64,000 bases of DNA from an uncultured delta proteobacterium (GCA_963815115.1 CAWFFN010000008.1:608001-672000), one strand, 5' to 3'. Shown: positions 9,505-55,292, counted from the first letter of the stretch. A program made the numbers and translations. Notes: generated from the letters alone by a model not told the origin.

Positions 9505-10277
9505 TGCGCAACGTCCTCACCATCGCCGGTCGCGAGATCCGCTCGTACTTCTCGTCGCCCGTGGCCTACGTCCTGCTGGCCGTCTTTCTCGCCCTCGCGG
9601 GCTACTTCTTCTGGGCCCTCCTCACCTCGTTCAATCAGATGCTCGCCATCTACAGCATGATGCGCAATCCCGAGATGCTGCAGCGCTTCAACCTGAACGA
9701 GATGGTGATCCGGCCCCTGCTCCAGAACATGGCGGTGCTCCTCATCTTCATCGTCCCGGCGATCACGATGCGCATGTTCCCCGAGGAGAAGCGCGCCGGC
9801 ACCTACGAGCTGCTGCTCACGTCGCCGGTGCGGGTGGGGGAGATCGTCGCCGGAAAGTTTCTCGGCGGCCTCGCCCTGCTGCTGGTGATGATCGCGCTCT
9901 CCAGCATCTTCGGCCTGCTGCTCTCCCTGTACGGCAACCCGGAGATCAGGATGATGCTCGCGGGCTACCTCGGGCTGCTGCTGATGGCGACGAGCTTCCT
10001 CGCCATCGGCACGCTGATCTCGTCGTTCACCGACAACGTCGTCATCGCATACGTGGGCACGCTCTTCACGCTCCTGGTGCTCTACACCATCGGCTGGCTG
10101 GGCGAGACCGTCCAGGGCTTCTGGTCGGGCGTGATCCGGTACGTCTCCATCACCGACCACTTCCAGGAGTTCACCAAGGGCATCATCGACACGAGGGACC
10201 TGGTCTACTTCGCGACCGTCCTCGTGGTGACCCTGTTCCTCACCCACCGATCGGTCGAGTCGGTCCGCTGGAGGTGA
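9504..10277 (+). CDS. ABC-2 permease (GldF-like)
   Basis: TGATG coupling; REIRSYFSSPVAY, EEKRAGTYELLLTSP, GKF. Confidence 0.9.
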   Translation: MRNVLTIAGREIRSYFSSPVAYVLLAVFLALAGYFFWALLTSFNQMLAIYSMMRNPEMLQRFNLNEMVIRPLLQNMAVLLIFIVPAITMRMFPEEKRAGTYELLLTSPVRVGEIVAGKFLGGLALLLVMIALSSIFGLLLSLYGNPEIRMMLAGYLGLLLMATSFLAIGTLISSFTDNVVIAYVGTLFTLLVLYTIGWLGETVQGFWSGVIRYVSITDHFQEFTKGIIDTRDLVYFATVLVVTLFLTHRSVESVRWR

Positions 10278-10280
10278 GTC

Positions 10281-11858
10281 GTGGGTCGGTCCGCCTCGCT
10301 CCTCGGCCTCCTCGGCCTCGTCCTGCTCGCGTTCGGCTTCGTCGCCGCGGCGATCGTCGAGTTCCCTGCCCGCGATCCGTTCGTCCTGGCGAACGTGATC
10401 CTGGGCGCCGGGCTGCTGCTCCTCACCCTCGTCTTCGGGTTCGACAACCTGCGCGGGCTGGTCGGGCAACGCTCGACGCGCTACGGCGCGAGCGCCGCCA
10501 TCTACTCGGCGCTCTTCGTCGCGCTGCTCGTCGGGCTGAGCTATCTCGGCATTCGCCACCACCATCGCTGGGACCTCACCGAGAGCGGCGCCTACACCCT
10601 CTCGCCGCAGTCGAAGAAGGTGGTCGAGGCGCTCAAGGACAAGCTGGTCGTCACGGCCTTCGCCGACGGCGGCGTCAGTCCGCAGCTCGAGACCCTGCTC
10701 GACGGCTATCGGTACCTCTCCCCCGATCAGGTCGAGACCCGCGTGGTCGACCCCGACAAGGAGCCCACGCTCGCCGAGCAGATGAAGATCACCACCGTCC
10801 CGAGCGTGCACCTGCAGTACGGCAAGGAGAGCTTCGTGGTGACGCAGCCGACGGAGGAGACGGTCACCAACGGGATCATCCGCGTCACGCGGAGCGGGAA
10901 GAAGGTCGTGTACTTCACGGAAGGGTTCGGCGAGCCGGACGTGAAGAACGCGGACGACCCGAAGGGATTCTCGGAGGTGAAGCTCGCCCTCGAGCAGGAG
11001 AACTACGAGGTCAAGTCCCTCCTGCTGCCGTCGGTCGAGCAGGTTCCCGACGACGCCAGCGCGGTGGTGCTGGCCGGGCCCACCCGGCCCCTCACCGAGG
11101 CAGCGATCGCGGCGCTCGACGGCTATCTCAAGCGCGGCGGCCACCTGCTCGCGCTCGTCGGCGCGGGTCCGAGCGGCGACAAGGGCAGCGAGAAGCTCAC
11201 GGCCTTCCTCGGCGGCTGGGGCGTCAAGGTGGGCAACGACATCGTGATCGATCGCGAGATGCGGCTCTTCGAAGGCCCTCGCCTGGGGGTCGTGCCGCTC
11301 TCCCGCACCTACGGCACCCATCCCGTCACGCAGGGCTTCAAGGACTACACGGTCTTCCCACAGACCCGCAGCGTCGAGCCCGCGGCCGAGGGCAAGAAGG
11401 GCCTCCAGGCCACGTGGCTGGTCAAGACGAGCGAGTCGAGCTGGGCCGAGACCGACGTCGACGGCGTCTTCGCCAAGGGCGTTGCGACCCTGGACCAGAC
11501 CGACCGCAAGGGTCCGGTGTCGATCGCGGTCGCGGTCACCGCGAACCTGAAGGAGCTCGGGGCGAATCCGCCCCAGGGCGTCACGGACGCGCGGCTCGTC
11601 GTGTTCGGCAGTGCCCTCTTCGCCGACAACCAGCAGATCGAGCAGTCCCGGCTGAACGGCGACCTGTTCCTGAACGCGGTCGGCTGGCTGGTCGGACAGG
11701 AGGACCTGATCTCCATCCGCAGCCAGAGCGTGCGCGCCTCGCGCGCCGACCTGACGCCGGCCCAGGCCCCCCAGGTCTTCTACCTCTCCGTGTTCATCAT
11801 CCCCGAGCTGCTGATCGCCCTCGGCATCTGGGTGTGGTGGCGGCGGAGAGCGGCGTGA
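10281..11858 (+). CDS. GldG-like ABC auxiliary component
   Basis: RWDLTESGAYTLS, VYFTEGFGE, NGDLFLNAVGWL, C-terminal TM plus WWRRR. Confidence 0.88.
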   Translation: MGRSASLLGLLGLVLLAFGFVAAAIVEFPARDPFVLANVILGAGLLLLTLVFGFDNLRGLVGQRSTRYGASAAIYSALFVALLVGLSYLGIRHHHRWDLTESGAYTLSPQSKKVVEALKDKLVVTAFADGGVSPQLETLLDGYRYLSPDQVETRVVDPDKEPTLAEQMKITTVPSVHLQYGKESFVVTQPTEETVTNGIIRVTRSGKKVVYFTEGFGEPDVKNADDPKGFSEVKLALEQENYEVKSLLLPSVEQVPDDASAVVLAGPTRPLTEAAIAALDGYLKRGGHLLALVGAGPSGDKGSEKLTAFLGGWGVKVGNDIVIDREMRLFEGPRLGVVPLSRTYGTHPVTQGFKDYTVFPQTRSVEPAAEGKKGLQATWLVKTSESSWAETDVDGVFAKGVATLDQTDRKGPVSIAVAVTANLKELGANPPQGVTDARLVVFGSALFADNQQIEQSRLNGDLFLNAVGWLVGQEDLISIRSQSVRASRADLTPAQAPQVFYLSVFIIPELLIALGIWVWWRRRAA

Positions 11859-42678: not shown

Positions 42679-42900
42679 ATGAAGAAGGCATTGGCAGGCA
42701 TGGGGTTGCTGCTGTTCGTCGGCGCGTTCGGAGCGGGATGTGAACCCATGAGCAAGGTGAAGGAGCCGCTCCAGCGAGCCGAAGCGGCCGCGACACGCGC
42801 TGAGGATGCGGGACGCCGGGCAGAAGCCGGCGCCTCCCGGGCCGAGGCAGCGTGCGATCGCTGCGCGGCGATGGCCGGCAAGGGCTCGATGCACAAGTAG
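42679..42900 (+). CDS. Lpp/OprI-like alanine-zipper lipoprotein 2
   Basis: AGGAGG SD; lipobox GAGC; RAEAAATRAEDAGRRAEA paralogous to previous gene; C-terminal Lys. Confidence 0.75.
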   Translation: MKKALAGMGLLLFVGAFGAGCEPMSKVKEPLQRAEAAATRAEDAGRRAEAGASRAEAACDRCAAMAGKGSMHK

Positions 42901-42929
42901 AGTGCCATCGATCCCTTGATCGTTCAAAG

Positions 42930-42964
42930 AAGGCGAGGGCGATGAGCCGTCGCCTTTTTTGTTT
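42930..42964 (+). terminator. Rho-independent terminator
   Basis: AAGGCGA...TCGCCTT stem followed by T run. Confidence 0.75.
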
Positions 42965-42987
42965 GGTGCGCGAGCCTCCTGGTGGCG

Positions 42988-44181
42988 TCAGCGCAATTGC
43001 GCCAGGGCGTCGCCGATCCGCCTGATGCCCTCCTCGAGCACCTGGCGCGGCGCCGCATAGGAGAGGCGGATGTGGCGCGGCGCGCCGAACCCTTCGCCCG
43101 GAACGGTCGCGACGTTCGCGTGGCGCAGCAGGTGGGTGGAGAGTTCGTGAGCGGACGCGACGATCCCGTCGGGTCCGCGGCGGCCGAAGACCGAGCTCAC
43201 GTCGGGGAAGACGTAGAAAGCGCCTCCCGGCACGGTGGTGCGCACGCCCGGGATGGCGCCGAGGCACGCGATGACGAGGTCGCGCCGCGCCAGGAACTCG
43301 CGCGCCATGGCTCCGACGCACTCCTGCGGCCCGGTGAGGGCGGCGACCGCCGCCGCCTGCGCGATCGACGTCGGATTCGACGTGCTCTGACTCTGCAGCG
43401 CGGTCATGGCCGCGATGGCCTCGGCCGGCGCTGCCACGTAGCCGATGCGCCAGCCCGTCATCGAGTACGTCTTCGAGACCGAGTTGACGACCAGGAGCCG
43501 CGGGCGCAGCTCCGGCACCAGCGCACCGATGTTCTCGATCGGGTGCTCGGCGATGTGCTCGTAGATGTCGTCGGTGAACACGATCAGTCCGCGGCGCAGC
43601 GCCACCTCGCCGATGGCGCGAACCTCGTCCGACGAGTAGACGGCTCCCGTCGGGTTGCTCGGGCTGTTCAGGACGAGGCCCTTGGTGCGCGCGCCACAGG
43701 CCGCCTCGAGCTGGGCGGCGCTCATGCGGAAGCCCTGCTCCGGGGTGGTCTCGACGACGCGGGTGGTCGCGCCGGCGAGCGTGAGCATGTCGGGGTAGCT
43801 CACCCAGTACGGCGCCGGGACGATCACCTCGTCACCCTCGTCGAAGAGGGCCTGGAAGGCGTTGTAGAGGACGTGCTTGCCGCCGCAGCTCGCCATCACC
43901 TCGGCGCGCTCGTAGGCGAGGCCGTTCTCGCGCCGGAGCTTCTCGCGGATGGCGTCCTTCAGCTCGGGGGTGCCGCCGACGGCCGTGTACTTCGTGAGCC
44001 CTCGGGCCAGGGCCTCGCGGGCCGCGGCCTTGATGTGCTCCGGGGTCTCGAAGTCGGGCTCGCCGGCAGAGAGGTCGACGATGTCGCGGCCCTCGGCGCG
44101 CAGGGCTGCCGCCTCGGCGGCCATGCCGAGGGTGGGTGACGGCTTGATGCCGCGCACGCGCGCGGCGAGCTCGAGAGTCAT
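42988..44181 (-). CDS. PLP-dependent aminotransferase class I (aspartate aminotransferase-like)
   Basis: GEPDF, NSPSNPTG, DDIY, SKTYSMTGWRIGY, IRLSYA. Confidence 0.92.
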   Translation of the reverse strand: MTLELAARVRGIKPSPTLGMAAEAAALRAEGRDIVDLSAGEPDFETPEHIKAAAREALARGLTKYTAVGGTPELKDAIREKLRRENGLAYERAEVMASCGGKHVLYNAFQALFDEGDEVIVPAPYWVSYPDMLTLAGATTRVVETTPEQGFRMSAAQLEAACGARTKGLVLNSPSNPTGAVYSSDEVRAIGEVALRRGLIVFTDDIYEHIAEHPIENIGALVPELRPRLLVVNSVSKTYSMTGWRIGYVAAPAEAIAAMTALQSQSTSNPTSIAQAAAVAALTGPQECVGAMAREFLARRDLVIACLGAIPGVRTTVPGGAFYVFPDVSSVFGRRGPDGIVASAHELSTHLLRHANVATVPGEGFGAPRHIRLSYAAPRQVLEEGIRRIGDALAQLR

Positions 44182-44675
44182 GATCGGCGCTCCCGGACGC
44201 GGGCCAGCAGGCGCGACAGGACCTGGTCCGGCAACAGGCCGGCGACGTTGCCGCCCAGGCTCGCGACCTCCTTCACGAGGCGCGAGCTGACGTAGAAGTG
44301 GGATTCCCCGGCGACCATGAAGATGGTCTCGACCTGGGGCTTCAGGTGACGATTCATCGAGGTCATCTGGAACTCGTATTCGAAATCTGCCACCGCGCGC
44401 AGACCGCGCACGATGGCGGTCGCGCCCCTGGCGGCCGCGTAGTCGACCAGGAGTCCCGAGAAGGCATCGGCGCGCACGCGCTCGCCGTCTGCGGCGAAGG
44501 TCTCGCGGATCATCCCCACCCGCTCCTCGGGAGTGAACCAGGCCGAGTCCTTGTCCGGGTTGAAGGCGACGGCGACGATCACCTGATCGAAGACCTGGAG
44601 GCTGCGGCGAATGATGTCGACGTGGCCGTTGGTGATGGGGTCGAAGGAGCCGGGGTACACGGCGATCCGGTTCAT
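44178..44675 (-). CDS. coaD: Phosphopantetheine adenylyltransferase
   Basis: YPGSFDPITNGH, RGLRAVADFEYE, SSRLVKE. Confidence 0.96.
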   Translation of the reverse strand: MNRIAVYPGSFDPITNGHVDIIRRSLQVFDQVIVAVAFNPDKDSAWFTPEERVGMIRETFAADGERVRADAFSGLLVDYAAARGATAIVRGLRAVADFEYEFQMTSMNRHLKPQVETIFMVAGESHFYVSSRLVKEVASLGGNVAGLLPDQVLSRLLARVRERRS

Positions 44676-45244
44676 GCCGTCACCTCCGGGCGCTGCAGCA
44701 GGGTGAGAGCCGTGTCGCCATGGCGGCGGCAGGCCACCGGGACGAGCCCCGGGCGCTCCGCCGGCGTCTCGTCGAGGGCGTGCTCGACGGCCAGCCAGCC
44801 CTCCTGACCGAGGACCTCGCCCGCGGCCACCTGATCGACGAGGCGCTGGACGCAGCCCGCGCGGTAGGGCGGATCGGCGAGGATGCCGTCGACCCGCACC
44901 CCGCGCCGTCCGAGCGTGCGCAGCGCGCGATCCGCCGCCATGGGCATCACCTCCGCGCGTCGGGTGAAGCCGCTCACCCGCAGGTTGCCGCGCAGCGTCC
45001 GGACGACGACCGCCGAGGCCTCGACGAAGACCACGGCGCGTGCGCCCCGCGACAGCGCCTCGATGCCGAGCGCACCGCTGCCCGCGTAGAGGTCGATCAC
45101 GCGCGCGTCGGTCAGCCAGCCTCGGTGTTCGAGCATGTTGAAGAGCGCTCCTCGCACCAGGCTCGAGGTCGGACGCGTACGGCCACCCGCCGGAACCCGG
45201 AGCCGCCGACCGTGCGCGCCTCCCGCGATGATCCTGAGCGCCAT
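44672..45244 (-). CDS. rsmD: 16S rRNA G966 methyltransferase
   Basis: LRIIAG, TRPT, DLYAGSGALGIEALSRGA, DPPY. Confidence 0.92.
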   Translation of the reverse strand: MALRIIAGGAHGRRLRVPAGGRTRPTSSLVRGALFNMLEHRGWLTDARVIDLYAGSGALGIEALSRGARAVVFVEASAVVVRTLRGNLRVSGFTRRAEVMPMAADRALRTLGRRGVRVDGILADPPYRAGCVQRLVDQVAAGEVLGQEGWLAVEHALDETPAERPGLVPVACRRHGDTALTLLQRPEVTA

Positions 45245-45297
45245 GATCGTCGGCCGTGGAGCTTATAGCGGGTGCGCGATGATCCGGGCAACCGACG

Positions 45298-45417
45298 TCA
45301 CTTCTTCTGTTGCATGTCGGCGCCGCAGCAACGCAGCGTACCGCTGCCGGCCTTGGTGACGATCACCTGCGAGCCGCAGGCGCTGCAGACGTAGATCTTG
45401 CCGATCTGGCTGGGCAT
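45298..45417 (-). CDS. Desulforedoxin-like microprotein B (39 aa; not in ORF track)
   Basis: MPSQIGKIYVCSACGSQVIVTKAGSGTLRCCGADMQQKK; CxxCG-x14-CC; GAGGAGG SD upstream. Confidence 0.85.
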   Translation of the reverse strand: MPSQIGKIYVCSACGSQVIVTKAGSGTLRCCGADMQQKK

Positions 45418-45448
45418 GACGCTGTCGTCCTCCTCGACGGATGGGTTG

Positions 45449-46216
45449 CTACCGTCCCTCGTAGCGCGGCGGGCGGCGCTCGAGGAACGACCGCACCCCT
45501 TCCCGCCGGTCGCTGGTGGTCTGGAGCAGTACGTAGAGATCGTGCTCGAGCCGCACGCCGTCGTCCAGCGGGAGGTCGAGCGCGCGCCCCACCGCTTCCT
45601 TGGCCAGGCGCAGCGCGAGCGGACCGCGCTCGACGAGGCCGCGCGCCAGCGCGCCGGCGGCCGAACGCAGGCGCCGGGGAGCCACCACGCGCGACACGAG
45701 GCCCCACGCCGCGGCGGTGTGCGCCGCCACCGGCTCGCCGAGCAGCAGCATCGAGAGCGCCCGCGCGGTACCGACCAGGCGGGGAAGCCGCTGGGTCACC
45801 CCGCCGCCCGGCAGCCGGCCGCGGGACACCTCGGGCAGCTCCAGTACCGCGGTCGTCGCCGCGACGCGGAGGTCGCATGCCAGAGCCAGCGCGAGCCCCC
45901 AGCCTCGAACCGTCCCGGCCAGGCAGCCGATCACCGGCTTGGTCACGCCGGCGACCGCCGCCACCCCGTCCGGCCAGCCGGCGGGCGGCCACGCGATCCC
46001 GGCCGGCAGGCCGGCGCAGAAGTGCTCGCCGGCCCCCGACATGACCATCGCCCGCACCCGCCGGTCGTGCTCGACCGCCTCGCAGGCGTCGGCGAGCGCG
46101 CCCATCATCTCGTCGTCGAGCAGGTTGCGCCGCGCCGGACGTGCCAGCGTCAGCCAGGCGACGCCATCCTCGACCGCCGTCTCGACCGCGGGACGGCGTG
46201 CCGCATGGCGGCTCAC
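45449..46216 (-). CDS. Enoyl-CoA hydratase/isomerase family protein (degenerate active site)
   Basis: GTG overlaps ligase stop; [42 protein letters not shown]. Confidence 0.85.
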
Positions 46217-47763
46217 GCGCCCTCGACCTGCGCGCGCAGCTCGCGGCGGAGCACCTTGCCCATCGGGTTCTTCGGCAGCTCGGGGAGGAAGCGGATCACC
46301 TCGGGCTTCTTGAAGCTCGCGAGGCGCTGCCGGCAGAATTCGCCCAGCTCCTCGGCGGTCGCCTGGGCATCCGGGCGCAGGACGACGAACGCGCCGATCC
46401 GCTGTCCCCACTCGACGTCCGGCAGCCCGACCACCGCCACCTCCTCGACGGCCGGGTGCGCTCCGAGCACCGTCTCGACCTCGGCGGGTGCGATGTTCTC
46501 CCCGCCCCGGATGATCATGTCGTCCTTGCGGCCCGCGACGTAGAGGTAGCCGTCCGCATCCACCCAGCCCAGGTCCCGCGTCGGGAGCCAGCCGTCGGCG
46601 GTGAACGGGGAGTCCCCTCCGCCGGCGTAGCCCTTCATCGCACGCGGCGTGCGGACGTGGATCTCCCCCACCTGATCGGCTCCCAGCTCCTCGCCCTCCT
46701 CGCCCACGATGCGCACCTCGACGTCGGGCAGCGGGCGACCGATGGAGCGCAGGCGCCGGAGCGTGCGCTCGACGTCGTCCGGGCCGCCGTCGAGGCGGTG
46801 ATCCTCCGGCCCCAGCACGGTCAGGGTGGAGGTGGTCTCGGTCTGCCCGAAGGCGTTCACGAAGCCGACCGCCTTCGGGAGGCGCTCGATGGCGCGGCGA
46901 ATGACCGGGAACGGCATGGGCGCGCCGCCGTAGGCGAGCACCTCCAGGCCGGCGAGGTCGCGCCGCTCGAGGTCGGGTTGATCGAGCAGGTGCTTCATCA
47001 TCGTCGGCACGACGAAGGCGTGCGTGATGCGCTCGCGCTCGACGAGATCGAGCCAGGCGCCTGCCTCGAACTGCGCCATGATCACGAGGCGGCGCCCGGT
47101 CCACAGCGTCGTCATCATGTTGGTCGCGCCGGCGATGTGGTAGAGCGGCGCGCACAGCAGCGCCGCGCCGCGCGGCGTGCCGTCGGCCAGCTCGACGTTG
47201 GCCGTGACGTAGGCGCTGAAGTCGCCGTACGTGAGCAGCACGCCCTTCGGCAGCGACGTCGTGCCGCTCGTGAACATGAGGATCGTGGTCTCCTCGTCCT
47301 CGACGTCGGCTTCCGCATCGAACGGCTCCGCGGCGGCGAGCAGACTCTCGTACGCCGGCAGATCACCGTGCGGGGCGTCGAAGCCGATCACCGTCCGCAG
47401 CGCGGGCAGCCCGGGACGCAAGGCCGTCACCGCGGGCACGTAGCGCCCGCCGACCAGCAGCACGCTGGCCTCCCCGGCTCGCAGCATGTGCTCCAGCTCC
47501 GGCTGCTTGGCGCGATAGTTGACCGGGATGAACACGCCGCCGAGGAGGGCGGTGGCATAGTAGGCCTCGACGTAGCGGTGCGAGTTGGTGTCCAGCGCCG
47601 CGACACGCGTGCCGCGACCAACGCCCAGCCGCGCGAGCGCGCCAGCGAGGCGCCGGACCCGGGCCTCGACCTCCGCGTAGGTGAAGCGCTGTCCGTCGAA
47701 GACCACCGCCTCCTGCTCGGGAACGATGCCCGCAGGGATGGTGAGGAAGGCGACGGTATTCAT
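46213..47763 (-). CDS. Acyl-CoA synthetase / AMP-binding ligase
   Basis: [40 protein letters not shown]. Confidence 0.92.
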
Positions 47764-48494
47764 GGCGTCGCGCCTTCTAGCCCGAGCGCGAGCCGGCGCT
47801 CAAGGGCGATGCCGTCCTCGAGCGACAGGTCGTGGGCCGCGCGCACGCAGCGCCGGGCGGCGCGGGCAACGCGCGGCGGTACGCGCGCCAGCCGGTTCGC
47901 CAGGGCGCGCGTCGCGGCGTCGAGGCGCGGCCGCGGCACGACCCGCACGACCAGCCCGAGGCGCTCCGCCTCGCCGGCGTCGATCCGCCGGCCCGTCAGC
48001 ACCAGGTCGAGCGCCCGGCCGACGCCGACCCGCCGCGGCAGGGTCTGCGTCCCCGCCACCCCCGGGATCATGCCGCGCCCGGTCTCGGGAAGCGCAAAGC
48101 TCGCGTCGGCCGCGGCGATGCAGAGGTCGCAGAGGAGTGCCATCTCCATACCGCCCCCCACCGCGAGCCCATGGACCGCGGCCAGGGTGACCGCGCGCAG
48201 CCGCAGGAGCTGGCCCCACACGTCGCGCTGCCAGCGTACCTGGCGGGCGATGAACGGCGACGGTGCGCTGCCGAACTCGCGCAGGTCGCCGCCGGTGGAG
48301 AACGCCGGCCCACGGCCGCGCAGGACGAGGACGCGGACGTCCGGGTCCGCGTCGGCAGCGGCGAGCACGGCGTGCAGGTCGTCGCGCATCGCCATGCTGT
48401 AGGCGTTGAGCACCTCGGGCCGGTCGAGGCTCACCGTCGCGACCGCGCCCCGGGTCTCGTAACGCAGCGTCACGTACGGCCTCACGCGCGTCAC
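47760..48494 (-). CDS. Enoyl-CoA hydratase/isomerase family protein
   Basis: [27 protein letters not shown]; start estimated at GTG 48494. Confidence 0.88.
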   Translation of the reverse strand: MTRVRPYVTLRYETRGAVATVSLDRPEVLNAYSMAMRDDLHAVLAAADADPDVRVLVLRGRGPAFSTGGDLREFGSAPSPFIARQVRWQRDVWGQLLRLRAVTLAAVHGLAVGGGMEMALLCDLCIAAADASFALPETGRGMIPGVAGTQTLPRRVGVGRALDLVLTGRRIDAGEAERLGLVVRVVPRPRLDAATRALANRLARVPPRVARAARRCVRAAHDLSLEDGIALERRLALGLEGATP

Positions 48495-48619
48495 ACGATC
48501 TCCCCGCCGATCCTCGTCAGGCGGACGCGCGCGGGCGCGACCCTCGTCCGGCGACGCGGATCGGCCTCCACGACGACTCGATCGGCCGGACGGGTTCTCC
48601 AGGCTGCAGGAGTCGTGCG

Positions 48620-48763
48620 TCAGTCCGACGACGGGAGCGGCTTCGCTTCCTTGAGCTTCATCTCGTGGTCGCAGCAGGTGAGCTCGCCGCCGCCGGGCTT
48701 GTTGCACAGCACCTCTGCGCCGCAGGCGTCACACAGGTACCGCTTGCCGAGCTGGGTGGACAT
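48620..48763 (-). CDS. Desulforedoxin-like microprotein A (47 aa; not in ORF track)
   Basis: MSTQLGKRYLCDACGAEVLCNKPGGGELTCCDHEMKLKEAKPLPSSD; paralog of 45298..45417; promoter-like TTGAGC-N18-TACCAG 7 nt upstream. Confidence 0.85.
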   Translation of the reverse strand: MSTQLGKRYLCDACGAEVLCNKPGGGELTCCDHEMKLKEAKPLPSSD

Positions 48764-48827
48764 GGCCCGTCTGGTAGCAGACAGGCACGCCGCGGCTCAA
48801 GGAGGCGGCTCCGACCGTCTCGTGCGG

Positions 48828-49877
48828 CTACGCGAGGGGCCAGGTCGCGACCCGCGCCACCGTGACCGCGTGACCGCCGCGCACGGCGAGCTCCGTGCCC
48901 GGCTCCCAGTGCTCGCGGCGCACGAAGCCCAGCCCGGCGAGCGTGCCGGCGCCGAAGGCACGCGCGATGGTGGTGAGGTGCCCGACGTCCTTGCCGTCGC
49001 GCACCAGCGCCGCGCCGCTCGCCGGTGCCGGTCCGGCGAGCAGGAGCGGGACCAGGCGGCGGTTGACGTGCCCCCGGGCCGTCCCGCGCGCGACCACCTC
49101 CTGCCCGAGGTAGCACCCCTTCGTGATGCTGATCGCATCCTCGACCGGCACCTCCAGCGCCAGGGTCTTCTCGCCCATGTCGAGGCCGACACGCGGCACC
49201 CCGACCTCGACGCGCCGGCCCTCGAGCGCCTCCATGCCGCACGGCCTCGCGCCTGCAGCGCCGAGGGCGTCCCACACCGCGGCAGCGTGCGCGCGCGGCA
49301 CGTGCAGCGCGAAGCCGTCACCGCGCACCTCGCTGGTGCGCTGGATGCGGACGTCCACCCCGGCGATCCGGGCCTGCGCGTGTGCGAACGGCGCCAGCGC
49401 CGCCGCGACCCCGGCGAGGAGCCGCGCGGCCCCGGGTCCCTCGACGCCGACCAGCGCCGGCGGATCGGCCGGCGCGAGCAGCTCGACGTCGTCCGCGATG
49501 AGGAGCGCTTCCAGCGCGGCGACCATCCCGTCGCGGGCGCGGACGTCACAGTCGAGCAGGATCTCGTCCGCGAGCGCGGCCAGGCGGAGATCGGCGGTGA
49601 CGCGCCCCTGCACCGTCAGTAGCAGCGCCGGGCAGCCCTCGCCGGGGCCGAGGCGGGCGACGTCGTTGCTCAGCATGCCCTGGAGGAAGGACGCGCGGTC
49701 GGGGCCGGTGGCGCGCATCAGCGTGCGGAAGCCCAGGTCGATCAGCGCCGCTCCCCGGGTGAGCGCGCCATACTCCGCCTCCGGGTCGCCGAAATGGCGC
49801 GGCAGCGCGACGCCGCGGTCGTCGTCGTGCGACGCGCCGGCCGCCACGAGATGGGCGTGCAGGGCGGTCTCGATCAT
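48828..49877 (-). CDS. YgfZ/GcvT family folate-binding protein
   Basis: [23 protein letters not shown] signature. Confidence 0.88.
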
Positions 49878-49942
49878 CGGAGACCACCGTGCCCGGCTCC
49901 TTCCGGCTTGACAAGGGAGGCGAAGACACGGAAAGCGCAAAC

Positions 49943-50743
49943 GTGGGCGGTGCGCCGGCGATCTACGAGGACATCCTCTACGAGTCACGGGACGGCATCG
50001 CCTGGATCACCATCAACCGGCCCGAGGTGCTGAACGCCTTCCGCGCCCGGACGGTCGACGAGCTCATCGCCGCCTTCCGCACCGCCTGGCACGACGCCGG
50101 CGTCGGCGTCGCCGTGCTCACGGGCGCCGGCGAGCGCGCCTTCTCCAGCGGCGGCGACCAGACCGAGCGCAGCGACCAGGGCTACGGCGGCGGCGGCGGC
50201 GGTCCGGGGCTCGACGTGCACGGGCTGCACGGCATCCTCCGGGCGATCCCGAAGCCGGTGATCGCCATGGTGAACGGCTGGGCGATCGGCGGCGGTCACG
50301 TGCTCCACGTGCTGTGCGATCTCACCATCGCAGCCGACACCGCACGCTTCGGACAGGTCGGGCCCCGGGTCGGATCGGTCGATCCCGGCTTCGGCACCGC
50401 GTATCTGGCGCGCGTGGTGGGCGAGAAGAAAGCGCGCGAGATGTGGTACCTCTGCCGGCAGTACACGGCCGAGCAGGCGCTGGCGATGGGCCTGGTCAAC
50501 GCGGTGGTGCCCGCGGCCGAGCTGCGTGCCGAGACCGAGCGCTGGTGCCACGAGCTCCTCGAGAAGAGCCCGACCGCCCTCAAGCTCGCCAAGCAGTCCT
50601 TCAACGCCGACACGGAGCACATCGCGGGCATCACCGAGCTGGGCTTCGCCGCGCTCGAGCTGTACTATCGCACCGACGAGGCCGAGGAGGGCCGGCGCGC
50701 CTTCCTCGAGCGGCGGCCGCCCCGCTTCCGGCGCTTGCCCTAG
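49943..50743 (+). CDS. MenB/BadI-family crotonase (BadI-like 2-ketocyclohexanecarboxyl-CoA hydrolase or DHNA-CoA synthase)
   Basis: [43 protein letters not shown]. Confidence 0.75.
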
Positions 50744-50773: not shown

Positions 50774-52144
50774 ATGTCGAACCGCCGGCTCCCTCTCGCG
50801 ACCTGGCTCACGACCGGCATGGCGCTGGCGGCTGGCAGCGCTGCACAGGCCGTCATCACGCTCGAGGATCCGGTCAATTTCCAGGTGAAGAACACCTTCA
50901 GCGCCACGACGCTCGGCGTGCCCGGGCCGCTCGGCGGACTGATGTTCTCGCCCGACGGCACCGTGCTCTACCTCGTCGGCGCCTCCGAGCTCACCACCAG
51001 CGCGCTGTACCGCATCCCCGTCACCCGCGATCCGGCGACGCACCAGGTCACCGACCTCGGCCCCGCGGCCGCCATCACCAAGGCCTTCGACGGCAATGCG
51101 GCGACGCCCGGCCTCGACACGGGACTCGAGCTCGGGCCGGGCGGCACGCTCTTCTACACCTACTGGAGCTCGAACTTCCTCGGCGAGCGTCCCGGCGGCG
51201 TCGCCGGTGCGGAGACGCAGTTCAACATGGCCCCCATCGGCGTTCCCTCCTCCATCGCCGGGCTCACCTTCTCGCCTCATCGGACCGATCCGGGCACCGG
51301 ATTCGGCCGCATGCAGATCAGCTCGTGGCAGGGGGCGAATCTCTACGAGGTGCCGCTCACGTCCGGCGCCGGCGGCATCTTCACGCCCGGGGCCGTCACG
51401 CTCTTCGTCACGTTGCCACAGCAAGGCACGGGTGCCATCCAGTACGTCCCGTCGGGCCCGCTGGCCGGCAACCTCATGTACGTCAACTGGAACTTCGGCG
51501 AGGTGCGGCTCCTCACCATCGACCCGGCGACGGGTCTTGCGGTCGACAAGGGCACCGGGCAGCCGACGCTCGGAACGACCGATCCCGTGGACGCCCGCTT
51601 CGCCTCCGGCCTCGGCGTGGGACCATGGGGACTCGAGTTCGATCCCCTGACCAACGACTTCTTCGTCGCCACCTTCCGTGGGGACCCGGCCAACACGATC
51701 GTCCAGATCGGCGGCGCCGGCTTCCCGCCGCCCGAGAGCACGACGACGACCACCGCCACCGTGACCACGACGACGACCACCACCACGCTGCCGTCGGAGT
51801 GCGGCGTCCGTGCGGCCACCTTCGAGTCGATCGATTGCCGGCTCGACCTGCTCGTGGTGAAGGTCGGCGCCGCGCAGGACCTCGGCAGGGGAAAGAAATT
51901 CCTGCTCGCCGGCGTGACCGCGGCGCGAGCCAAGAAGCAGGACGCCGAGGCCGACGTCGCGGCGGGCCGCGGCAAGCCCGCGAACAAGGCCCTCGGGAAG
52001 TCCATCCGGAAGATGATCAACTTCGCGCACCGCCTGCGCTCGCTCACGTCCCGCAAGAACATCCCGGGTACGACGCGAACGGCGCTCCTCGACGACGCGA
52101 ACCCGATCCTGGAGGACCTGAAGACCCTGCGGCAGCAGTTCTGA
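50774..52144 (+). CDS. Secreted protein: beta-rich domain, Thr-rich linker, Cys-containing helical C-terminal domain
   Basis: Signal peptide (AAQA), repeated GL.F.P motifs, ESTTTTTATVTTTTTTTTLP, C...SIDCRLD. Confidence 0.75.
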   Translation: MSNRRLPLATWLTTGMALAAGSAAQAVITLEDPVNFQVKNTFSATTLGVPGPLGGLMFSPDGTVLYLVGASELTTSALYRIPVTRDPATHQVTDLGPAAAITKAFDGNAATPGLDTGLELGPGGTLFYTYWSSNFLGERPGGVAGAETQFNMAPIGVPSSIAGLTFSPHRTDPGTGFGRMQISSWQGANLYEVPLTSGAGGIFTPGAVTLFVTLPQQGTGAIQYVPSGPLAGNLMYVNWNFGEVRLLTIDPATGLAVDKGTGQPTLGTTDPVDARFASGLGVGPWGLEFDPLTNDFFVATFRGDPANTIVQIGGAGFPPPESTTTTTATVTTTTTTTTLPSECGVRAATFESIDCRLDLLVVKVGAAQDLGRGKKFLLAGVTAARAKKQDAEADVAAGRGKPANKALGKSIRKMINFAHRLRSLTSRKNIPGTTRTALLDDANPILEDLKTLRQQF

Positions 52145-53627: not shown

Positions 53628-55292
53628 ATGCTCGACCTGGTACTGCGTGGCGGAACGGTGTGCGACGGGAGCGGCGCACCCGCGCAGACTGCCGACGTCG
53701 CGATCGAGGGCGGGCGCGTCGTGGCGGTCGGGCGCGTCGCCGAGGCGGCACGGCGCGTCGTCGACGTCGCCGGCCTGGTGGTCGCGCCGGGCTTCGTCGA
53801 CGTCCACACGCACTACGACGCCCAGGTCACGTGGGACGGGCTGTGCACACCGTCGTGCTGGCATGGGGTCACCACGGTCGTGCTCGGCAACTGCGGCTTC
53901 GCGCTCGCGCCGTGCCGGGCGGGCGATCGGGATCGCCTGCTCCGCATGCTCGAGTACGTCGAGGGCATGCCGCTGGAGAGCCTGCGGGCGGGCGTGCGCT
54001 GGAGCTGGGAGACGGTGCCCGACTACCTGGCCATGTTGCGCGCGGCGCGACTCGGGCCGAACGTTGGCGTGCTGGCCGGCCACTCGGCGCTGCGCGTGTT
54101 CGTCATGGGCGAAGCGGCCTACGACCGGGCCGCCACCGACGAGGAGATCGCCCGCATGCAGGCGATCGTGCGCGAGGCCATGGCGGCGGGTGCGCTCGGC
54201 TTCGCGACCTCGCGTTCCGCGGGTCACGTCGGGGAAGGCGGGCGTCCCGTGCCCAGCCGGCTCGCGACGCACGACGAGCTGCGCGCGCTCGCCGGCGCGA
54301 TGGCGAGCGGCGGCCGCGGGGTGCTGGAGATCACGCCCGAGACCTTCCCGATCGCCGAGCACGAGCTCTCGTTCCTGCAGGACCTCGCCGTCGAGAGCGG
54401 ACGCGCGGTGTCCTTCAGCGCCATCCTGGACCTGCCCGAACGCGACGGCGTCTGGGAGCCGGTCTGGGCGCGCGTTCGCGCGGGCCACGCGTGCGGCGCT
54501 CGCGTCGTTCCGCAGGTGTCGTGCCGGCCGATGCGTTTCGAGTTCGATCTCGTGACGGGCTGCGCCTCGCTCGACGCCCTGCCCGCCTGGAAGCGCTTCC
54601 GCGAAGTGCGCGATCACGCCGCGGTGCTCGCCGATCCCGGGTTCCGGGCCACGGTCAAGGACCAGACGCTCGGCCGGCCCGATACGCCGTCGAGCAAGCG
54701 CTGGGCGACCGTCGTGGTGGAGGAGGTGCGAGACCCGGCTCATGTCCGGTTCGCCGGCAGGACGCTCGCGGACGTCGCCGCGGCACGCGGCGGAGACGTC
54801 ATCGACGCGCTCTTCGATCTCGCACTCGCGGACGACCTCGCGACGCGTTTCTCGATGCTGCTGCTCAACTACGACGACGAGCGGGTCGCCGATCTGCTGC
54901 GGCAGCCGGAAGGCCTGATCGCGCTCTCCGACGCTGGCGCGCACGTCTCCGTTCTGTGCGACGCCGGCTACGCGACGCACCTGCTCGGGTACTGGGTGCG
55001 CGAGCGCGGCCTCCTCCCGCTTGAGCAGGCGATCCACAGGCTCACCGCGATGCCCGCGGACGTCTACGGCATCCCCGATCGCGGCCGTCTCGTGCCCGGC
55101 GCCGCCGCGGACGTCACGTGCTTCGACCCGGCACGGATCGGCTCGCGGGCGCCGGAGCGCGTGACCGACTTCCCGGCCGGTGCGCGGCGCTGGATCGTGC
55201 GCGCCGACGGGATCGCCCACGTCCTCGTCGGCGGCGTGCCGTTCATCGAGAGCGGGGAGCTGACGGGGAGCCGTCCCGGCCAGGTGATCTGA
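53628..55292 (+). CDS. N-acyl-D-amino-acid deacylase family amidohydrolase
   Basis: APGFVDVHTHYD, GVTTVVLGNCG, SDAGAH, DRGRLVPG.AAD. Confidence 0.9.
   Translation: MLDLVLRGGTVCDGSGAPAQTADVAIEGGRVVAVGRVAEAARRVVDVAGLVVAPGFVDVHTHYDAQVTWDGLCTPSCWHGVTTVVLGNCGFALAPCRAGDRDRLLRMLEYVEGMPLESLRAGVRWSWETVPDYLAMLRAARLGPNVGVLAGHSALRVFVMGEAAYDRAATDEEIARMQAIVREAMAAGALGFATSRSAGHVGEGGRPVPSRLATHDELRALAGAMASGGRGVLEITPETFPIAEHELSFLQDLAVESGRAVSFSAILDLPERDGVWEPVWARVRAGHACGARVVPQVSCRPMRFEFDLVTGCASLDALPAWKRFREVRDHAAVLADPGFRATVKDQTLGRPDTPSSKRWATVVVEEVRDPAHVRFAGRTLADVAAARGGDVIDALFDLALADDLATRFSMLLLNYDDERVADLLRQPEGLIALSDAGAHVSVLCDAGYATHLLGYWVRERGLLPLEQAIHRLTAMPADVYGIPDRGRLVPGAAADVTCFDPARIGSRAPERVTDFPAGARRWIVRADGIAHVLVGGVPFIESGELTGSRPGQVI

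Follow-up and report, generated by a model that had tools for sequence, protein, structure and literature searches.

Split and fused desulforedoxin-like small proteins adjoin one clade of FadD-like acyl-CoA ligases and are candidate accessory subunits of the enzyme

Desulforedoxin, a homodimer of two chains with distorted Fe(Cys)4 centres, is the described protein to which two microproteins, A and B, bear the closest sequence resemblance. Both are encoded on the minus strand of a 64,000-nucleotide stretch of DNA from an uncultured delta proteobacterium (GCA_963815115.1, CAWFFN010000008.1:608001-672000), the whole of which is referred to here as the window. Between the two small genes lie those of a crotonase (ECH1), an AMP-forming acyl-CoA ligase of the ANL family and a second crotonase (ECH2). 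In the reading preferred here, to which we would give about the same weight as to all others together, the A·B pair is a non-catalytic accessory subunit of the FadD-like ligase, and its metal site is structural. The principal evidence is the recurrent adjacency of relatives of A and B to homologues of this ligase in three phyla.

The resemblance to desulforedoxin and the N-terminal domain of desulfoferrodoxin (PF06397) lies in the sequence family, the size (36-47 aa) and the C-x2-C...C-C pattern, and a dimer of two chains would fit either A with B or a tandem B-A protein. However, A and B represent two paralogous types that have diverged and bear distinct signatures, and the A-type adds an invariant C-terminal tail and a fifth Cys. 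The A/B family is also linked to an acyl-CoA ligase, not to superoxide reductase (SOR), and many of its relatives are without metal ligands. No SOR (neelaredoxin) or rubredoxin-type domain was found in the 45 window open reading frames (ORFs) scanned, in agreement with the first-pass annotation of the window, and none was annotated in 14 plasmid contexts. Homologues are thus not found mainly beside SOR or rubredoxin genes, a distribution that would have told against a link to acyl-CoA chemistry; no such neighbour was seen in the inspected contexts.

The closest functional analogy is offered by MbtH-like proteins, the small partners of nonribosomal peptide synthetase (NRPS) adenylation domains. 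Like these, A, B and their fused relatives are small (40-100 aa), presumably non-catalytic, and encoded beside an ANL-superfamily enzyme; an MbtH-type adjacency to an adenylate-forming enzyme was seen for the fused genes in 15 of 18 plasmid places. In contrast to MbtH-like proteins, their sequence and fold are unrelated, and the putative partner is a stand-alone acyl-CoA synthetase, not an NRPS adenylation domain. Pfam scans at E ≤ 0.1 gave no MbtH (PF03621) match for A, B or the fused relatives.

Two further systems share some features. LysW and ArgW are amino-group carriers, small Cys4 zinc-ribbon proteins with an essential acidic C-terminal tail (EDWGE) and ATP-grasp ligases as partners. 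A and B are likewise small Cys4 proteins in a metabolic operon with a ligase, and A has a conserved C-terminal tail, but this tail reads PLPSSD and the ligase next door is of the ANL type. Models of LysW came up under their cut-offs, and for relative P0070 only (Zn_ribbon_LysW, 16.1 versus 27 bits; TIGR01206, 15.2 versus 53.2), and no ATP-grasp (LysX/ArgX) gene was seen in any inspected context.

DUF35 Zn-ribbon/OB-fold proteins scaffold thiolase-type enzymes (thiolase and HMG-CoA synthase), and the parallel is that of a small, non-catalytic Cys4 zinc-ribbon subunit in CoA-ester metabolism. A and B differ from them in having no OB fold, no sequence relation and another partner enzyme. Pairs of thiolase and Zn-ribbon/OB-fold (DUF35-like) genes nevertheless share plasmid clusters with the fused gene (L081, L083, L084, L090 and L098), so that two different small accessory proteins, Cys-rich or formerly Cys-rich, would be encoded there.

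Microprotein A (47 aa, 48620..48763, minus strand) and microprotein B (39 aa, 45298..45417, minus strand) were recovered with the coordinates and translations of the first-pass annotation, which had also recognized both as desulforedoxin-like. This assignment was confirmed with PF06397 (Desulfoferrod_N; gathering score 23 bits), for which A reached 30.6 bits (E 2.7e-7) and B 42 bits (E 7e-11). With the NCBIfam model TIGR00319 (cut-off 36.05), B passed at 37.0, whereas A fell short at 20.8. A profile of A, B and A homologues matched the solved desulforedoxin 1cfw (E 4.5e-5), with the C-x2-C and C-C pairs aligned. The 64-kb window has 930 stop-to-stop ORFs of 25 aa or more, and A and B were the only ones to match this profile; the next best had E 0.9.

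The ligand Cys of A are C11, C14, C30 and C31, and the protein ends in the conserved tail KLKEAKPLPSSD; B has four Cys ligands and the C-terminal ending M-x-Q-K-K. The fifth Cys of A (C20, window about 48704-48706) lies in the motif LC(N/T)K, outside the desulforedoxin ligand set. Related loci were obtained from a scan of species-representative genomes with 598 pattern matches, 569 of them confirmed by tblastn, and the best 80 of the 569 were analyzed. All 80 are from metagenome-assembled genomes of one class-level, Binatia-like lineage, and they contain 68 distinct A and 55 distinct B sequences; in a protein collection, 52 close relatives of A were found at 70-96% identity.

Alignments of 59 A and 59 B sequences from this lineage showed all four ligand Cys and several other positions to be invariant, together with the fifth Cys of A. 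The median pairwise ratio of nonsynonymous to synonymous substitution rates (dN/dS) was 0.117 for A, from 62 sequences and the 1409 of 1891 pairs in which dS was usable, and 0.105 for B, from 49 sequences and 985 usable pairs out of 1176. Taken together, the family scores, the dN/dS values of about 0.1 and the invariant ligands show that A and B are genuine genes under purifying selection.

A profile search of 1.84 billion representative proteins yielded 1156 matches at E ≤ 1e-3 and 180 at E ≤ 1e-10. The best 150 matches fell into three groups: free A-type proteins of some 45-47 residues with the C-terminus (A/P)K(P)LPSSD, free B-type proteins of some 39 residues with the C-terminus M(E/Q)QKK, and two-domain proteins of some 81-122 residues. 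When separate A and B profiles were applied, two domains were recognized in 44 of 149 representatives, in the order B-A in 33, A-A in 7, A-B in 3 and B-B in 1. Since 33 of these 44 run from B-type to A-type, A and B of the window correspond by sequence to the two halves of the fused protein, B to the N-terminal and A to the C-terminal one. Fusions among the representatives were to a second desulforedoxin-like domain only. The earlier idea that A and B work together, perhaps as a heterodimer, gains support from the B-A fusions found in other lineages.

In eight other relatives (P0126, P0134, P0136, P0141, P0167, P0170, P0188 and P0197; 104-118 aa), an N-terminal segment of about 60 residues precedes an A-type domain with the PSSD tail. 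This segment gave no match in P0126 and P0167, the two scanned.

The tail K-x-A-K-P-L-P-S-S-D was invariant in free A-type proteins and always stood at the protein end, its last residue, Asp, being invariant in three alignments (A2, A6 and A8). The metal site was not conserved. Among 46 two-domain representatives, 13 had four ligand Cys in both domains and 13 had two or fewer in both, the rest being mixed. The Cys-poor forms retain GKRY, E-x-LC-x-K-x-G-x-G-x-L, LC(T/N)K and the C-terminal K-x-AKPLPSSD, and a Cys at the LC(T/N)K position was present in 100 of 149 family representatives, including proteins without metal ligands. The metal ligands are therefore dispensable in evolution, whereas the C-terminal tail is kept.

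The Cys-poor subfamily comprises at least 1198 clusters (90% identity) without a Pfam domain in the search output, and every name given among the 120 of its clusters listed was 'hypothetical protein'. No Pfam or NCBIfam model was above cut-off for the Cys-less members scanned. The fold predicted for one Cys-less fused protein consists of two small beta units (predicted local distance difference test, 90.4; predicted template-modelling score, 0.81), and its structural neighbours in the ESM Atlas include a tandem Desulfoferrod_N cluster (template-modelling score 0.65-0.72). A Foldseek comparison of the fused-protein model with the Protein Data Bank gave no match at E ≤ 0.001 (best E 1.4), the domains being too small for this to be informative.

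Within the Binatia-like lineage, 60 loci extend at least 6.5 kb downstream of A, and the ligase was found in 56 of them. In 55 of these 56, B follows directly after ECH2 (median spacer 41 nt); the B match of L073 is weaker. In L062, only a partial ligase match was obtained. A and B thus form a conserved pair tied to the ligase/crotonase block.

Contexts beyond this lineage came from plasmids only, namely megaplasmids of actinobacteria and sphingomonads. The fused protein P0148 matched 19 plasmid records (12 of Rhodococcus, 3 of Streptomyces, 2 of Sphingobium and 1 each of Mycobacterium and Sphingomonas). Window A matched 15 of them at 49-58% identity, in each case within the C-terminal domain of the fused protein, and tblastn of B against plasmids gave no match at E ≤ 0.01. 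The plasmid set comprised 18 places, from 17 of the 19 records and a second copy in one record; hits H5 and H8 were left out, their identity, E-value and score being the same as those of H4 and H7.

In 15 of the 18 places, the gene directly adjacent on the same strand encodes a ligase homologous to that of the window (36-46% identity, E ≤ 2.7e-86). For 12 of these the adjacency was taken from the annotation, with gaps of 2-59 nt, and for 3 it was established by tblastn in unannotated records. Gene order was not constant among the 12 annotated cases: the ligase preceded the small gene in 4 and followed it in 8. Neighbours apart from the ligase varied as well and included CaiB-type CoA-transferases, crotonases, short-chain dehydrogenases/reductases, acyl-CoA dehydrogenases, a thiolase with an OB-fold protein, phosphotransferases and regulators, so that at least eight different gene sets surround the plasmid fused genes. 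Three plasmid contexts (L083, L092 and L098) also had amidohydrolase genes close to the fused gene.

The ligases beside the fused genes form one coherent clade with the window enzyme and keep all core ANL motifs. In six of the ligase-adjacent places (L081, L083, L084, L088, L090 and L093), no crotonase was present in the inspected stretch. The constant partner of the family across three phyla is accordingly one clade of FadD-like ligases, not crotonases. The co-occurrence with a ligase/crotonase clade proposed in the first-pass annotation therefore stands for the ligase, which is nearly constant in Binatia-like loci and plasmid places alike (56/60 and 15/18), and does not extend to the crotonases, absent from several contexts.

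Distances between small proteins were compared with those between the adjacent ligases. The Mantel correlation was 0.62 (p about 2e-4) over 12 pairs; over the 7 pairs of Rhodococcus paralogues it was 0.74 (p about 0.002), the same paralogue groupings being found for both proteins. The small protein and its ligase have been inherited or duplicated as units, which on its own falls short of proving co-evolution.

The window ligase (516 aa, 46213..47763, minus strand) scored 275.4 bits with PF00501 and 80.1 bits with PF13193; with PRK06187 it reached 466.2 bits, just under the cut-off of 476. Motifs of the ANL family were invariant in the ligase alignments, namely TSGTT-x-PKG, a YGxTE-type motif, GRxDD and the C-terminal PxxxxGK with its catalytic lysine. 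The closest solved structure is Mycobacterium tuberculosis FadD5 (8r2q, E 4.2e-80).

Both crotonases, ECH1 (47760..48494, minus strand; 244 aa if the start is the GTG at 48494) and ECH2 (45449..46216, minus strand; 255 aa), passed the ECH_1 (PF00378) cut-off of 27 with 177.8 and 159.3 bits, respectively, and neither reached an NCBIfam equivalog cut-off. The length of ECH1 counted from GTG 48494 agrees with that of its orthologues. In six loci (L021, L025, L028, L061, L063 and L077), ECH1 and the ligase form a single ORF of about 757-761 aa, and these natural fusions hint that the two enzymes act together, perhaps in a physical assembly.

At the catalytic-pair positions, which we take over from the rat enzyme, ECH1 has Glu twice (GGGMEMA ... 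LPETG), and ECH2 has Leu at the first (GWGLALA ... LPEVS). Because of this Leu, ECH2 may be something other than a plain hydratase.

In the accessory-subunit reading, A and B would each be one half, encoded by a gene of its own, of a small two-domain protein whose family descends from desulforedoxin, and they would pair like the two chains of desulforedoxin, here as a heterodimer. By binding to the ligase, the A·B pair would stabilize, assemble or tune it. Docking would probably involve the conserved tail and the basic GKRY face, and in the window the pairing may take place within an assembly of the ligase with both crotonases. In the Binatia-like proteins, the Cys4 site would be structural, holding Fe or Zn, and not an electron carrier.

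Several observations weigh against this reading. Binding of A and B to the ligase is inferred from genomic context and is to that extent indirect, and in the window A and B adjoin the crotonases, not the ligase. Within Binatia the link of the microproteins to the ligase is not strict: L042 (1314-3232) carries ECH1-ECH2-B without the ligase, and L044 (1463-8000) and L053 (10001-17000) carry ygfZ-A-Amidohydro_3 without ECH-LIG-ECH-B within 10 kb. In the latter two, ATP-sulfurylase and APS-kinase genes (sulfate activation) stand where that block would follow.

The three plasmid exceptions point in the same direction. In L091, the fused gene lacks an adjacent ligase and is flanked by hydrolase and FAD-oxidoreductase genes; in L098, which also has no adjacent ligase, an AMP-binding gene lies 3.2 kb off on the opposite strand; and in L096/L099, crotonases lie nearby and no ligase homologue was found within 9 kb. 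Close relatives yielded no ligase fused to an A-like domain: 6 of 9 candidates for an A-like domain in a longer protein matched (89-142 aa), none with an AMP-binding domain. Moreover, the Mantel correlation can also come from simple co-inheritance of linked genes, and the counts are not independent, the 80 loci being from one lineage and several plasmid loci being interrelated. In a complex prediction of the ligase with A, each of two runs gave a score of 0.02, the mark being 0.32; carried out without controls, the prediction carries no weight for or against binding.

Alternatively, A could bind ECH1 and B could bind ECH2, the A·B dimer tethering a crotonase-ligase-crotonase complex for channelling, much as the DUF35 protein does for thiolase and HMG-CoA synthase. 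In both the window and the Binatia-like loci, A and B do flank the block on its crotonase sides, and the ECH1-ligase fusions in six loci would suit such a complex. So would the crotonases near the fused gene in several plasmid contexts, among them L098 and L099, in which no ligase is adjacent. A tethering role of this kind is nevertheless unlikely, as the constant neighbour is the ligase (15/18) and not a crotonase, and as crotonases were missing from the inspected stretch of the six ligase-adjacent plasmid places named above.

A redox or metal role, with A and B as Fe(Cys)4 electron carriers or as iron/redox sensors gating an acyl-CoA pathway, would be in keeping with membership in the desulforedoxin family and with the invariance of the four ligand Cys across the lineage (59 sequences each of A and B). 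A ferredoxin gene was also found near two fused genes, and upstream of A in 76 of 80 loci lies ygfZ, whose product we take to be a protein of Fe-S maintenance. The first-pass annotation had considered redox or metal sensing among the possible functions; as a conserved function this is not supported, because 13 of the 46 two-domain relatives have at most two ligand Cys in both domains and still keep the tail and the ligase neighbour. Furthermore, no recurring SOR, rubredoxin or oxidoreductase partner was seen, and the reactions of ligases and crotonases use no electrons. We consider a redox role quite unlikely.

The conservation of the tail suggests another possibility, in which the PLPSSD-COOH end or the Cys of LC(T/N)K is adenylated or acylated by the ligase as a carrier or pseudo-substrate, or in which the tail occupies the active site as an inhibitor; the C-terminal tail of LysW would be the parallel. 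No other feature of the family is as conserved as the tail, which always forms the protein end and has an invariant last Asp; the Cys is present in the 100 of 149 representatives already mentioned; and the partner belongs to an enzyme family that activates carboxylates. On the other hand, the neighbouring genes all handle CoA thioesters, the LysW models stayed below cut-off and no ATP-grasp partner was seen, and we know of no precedent for an ANL enzyme acting on a protein C-terminus. A carrier or pseudo-substrate role must be regarded as very unlikely.

Least probable of all is that A and B are ordinary stand-alone desulforedoxins whose position merely reflects inherited gene order: all 80 genome loci are indeed from one class-level lineage, and A stays with ygfZ and the amidohydrolase where the enzyme block is missing, but the family also stands beside a homologous ligase in two further phyla, with either gene order and in changing neighbourhoods, B-A fusions exist, and the block keeps its synteny where the flanking housekeeping genes lose theirs.

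As to the anatomy of the locus, the order on the minus strand is ygfZ, A, a 125-nt gap, ECH1, ligase, ECH2, a 31-nt gap with GAGGAGG, and B. The overlap of ECH1 and ligase is ATGA (47763-47760) and that of ligase and ECH2 is GTGA (46216-46213), provided that ECH2 starts at that GTG, which accounts for the 4-nt overlaps among the enzymes noted at first pass. The Shine-Dalgarno sequence reported for B was also found, as GAGGAGG at 45429..45435 (minus strand), 11 nt upstream of the ATG, and a loosely defined Shine-Dalgarno-like 4-mer precedes B in 59 of 61 related loci.

Past B, at a distance of 53 nt and on the same strand, follow rsmD, coaD and an aminotransferase gene, and no terminator-like site was found between B and rsmD. 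The enzyme cluster therefore stays open at B, with same-strand genes continuing downstream. Of the initial picture of an operon bracketed by two microproteins, the flanking of the enzymes by A and B was retained, but B is not its end. The three downstream genes are present there only in the nearest loci. On the other side lies the gene of a YgfZ/GcvT-like folate-binding protein (48828..49988, minus strand; PF01571 and PF25455), which belongs to the context and is probably outside the unit. A ygfZ homologue is on the same strand upstream of A in the 76 loci mentioned (coverage at least 60%) and is missing from all plasmid contexts examined.

A promoter-like element before A (48771..48800, minus strand) consists of TTGAGC (48800-48795), 18 nt, TACCAG (48776-48771) and 7 nt before the ATG. 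The element of the first-pass annotation is thus present in the sequence, and its spacing recurs, but a consensus promoter scan of 42800-50200 called no sigma-70-type site (0 sites). The pattern TTGAG[C/A/T]-N18-TA[C/A]NNN-N5-8-ATG was found before A in 7 of the 12 nearest loci examined (L001, L002, L003, L005, L008, L012 and L022, besides the window), with a variable spacer sequence. No Shine-Dalgarno sequence is present before A in the loci with this element, and farther loci have GGAG-type sites in its place. The recurring spacing and the lack of a Shine-Dalgarno sequence suggest that A heads its own leaderless or near-leaderless transcript, with the TTGAG-N18-TA element as a putative promoter.

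Between A and ECH1, the nearest relatives L001-L003 carry an Amidohydro_3 gene of about 1.34 kb (about 10145-11600) that is deleted in the window. Window 48589..47700 aligned with L002 11488..12383 and window 49000..48620 with L002 9789..10144, and from these breakpoints about 1.34 kb is missing from the window. According to the same alignment, a remnant of the 3' end of the gene, about 95 nt long, is left at 48495..48589 (minus strand). A gap of more than 900 nt, sufficient for Amidohydro_3, separates A and ECH1 in 51 of 80 loci, and the domain was confirmed in all three scanned. A second Amidohydro_3 gene of the window (53628-55292) was considered as the relocated gap gene and rejected, as only a local match of 59 residues (E 5e-7) was obtained.

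Two further genes lie on the plus strand nearby. A third crotonase (284 aa, ECH_1 234.5 bits) is encoded at 49889-50743, divergent from ygfZ, and about 12 nearer loci have it at 74-87% identity within a few kb upstream of ygfZ. It is followed by an ORF of 456 aa (50774-52144) that contains a long run of Thr (TTTTTATVTTTTTTTT) and matched no Pfam model at E ≤ 1e-5; its product is possibly a secreted or surface protein.

In the literature within reach, which did not extend to subscription sources, no link of desulforedoxin-like proteins to acyl-CoA or CoA ligases and no work on the PLPSSD tail motif were found; a search for Binatia with fatty acid and beta-oxidation likewise gave no result. Titles with 'desulforedoxin-like' reportedly concern Clostridioides difficile and oxygen or ROS (reactive oxygen species) tolerance. 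The fold family is known and the genomic association is well supported, and no existing family model or paper was found for the association with the ligase.

The accessory-subunit reading can be extended to a bolder one, which we regard as possible though appreciably less probable. The B/A proteins, whether split or fused, metal-binding or metal-free, would be widespread obligate small partners of one clade of stand-alone acyl-CoA synthetases, and so for fatty-acyl-CoA ligases what MbtH-like proteins are for their enzymes, and the AKPLPSSD-COOH tail would insert into the ligase, affecting domain alternation or substrate access, or would be a covalent acceptor. If this were true, many 'orphan' FadD-like ligases in the catabolic clusters of actinobacteria and sphingomonads would show no activity or be insoluble in vitro when produced alone.

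ANL acyl-CoA synthetases are regarded as needing no partner. With a conserved small partner, the expression, assay and engineering of the many FadD-like ligases of Rhodococcus, Mycobacterium, Streptomyces, sphingomonads and Binatia would have to be approached differently, and the discovery of MbtH-like proteins had a similar effect for NRPS adenylation domains. The fold of a redox metalloprotein, desulforedoxin, would have been reused as a structural module and would then have lost its metal. A function would also be given to an unnamed family of at least 1198 clusters.

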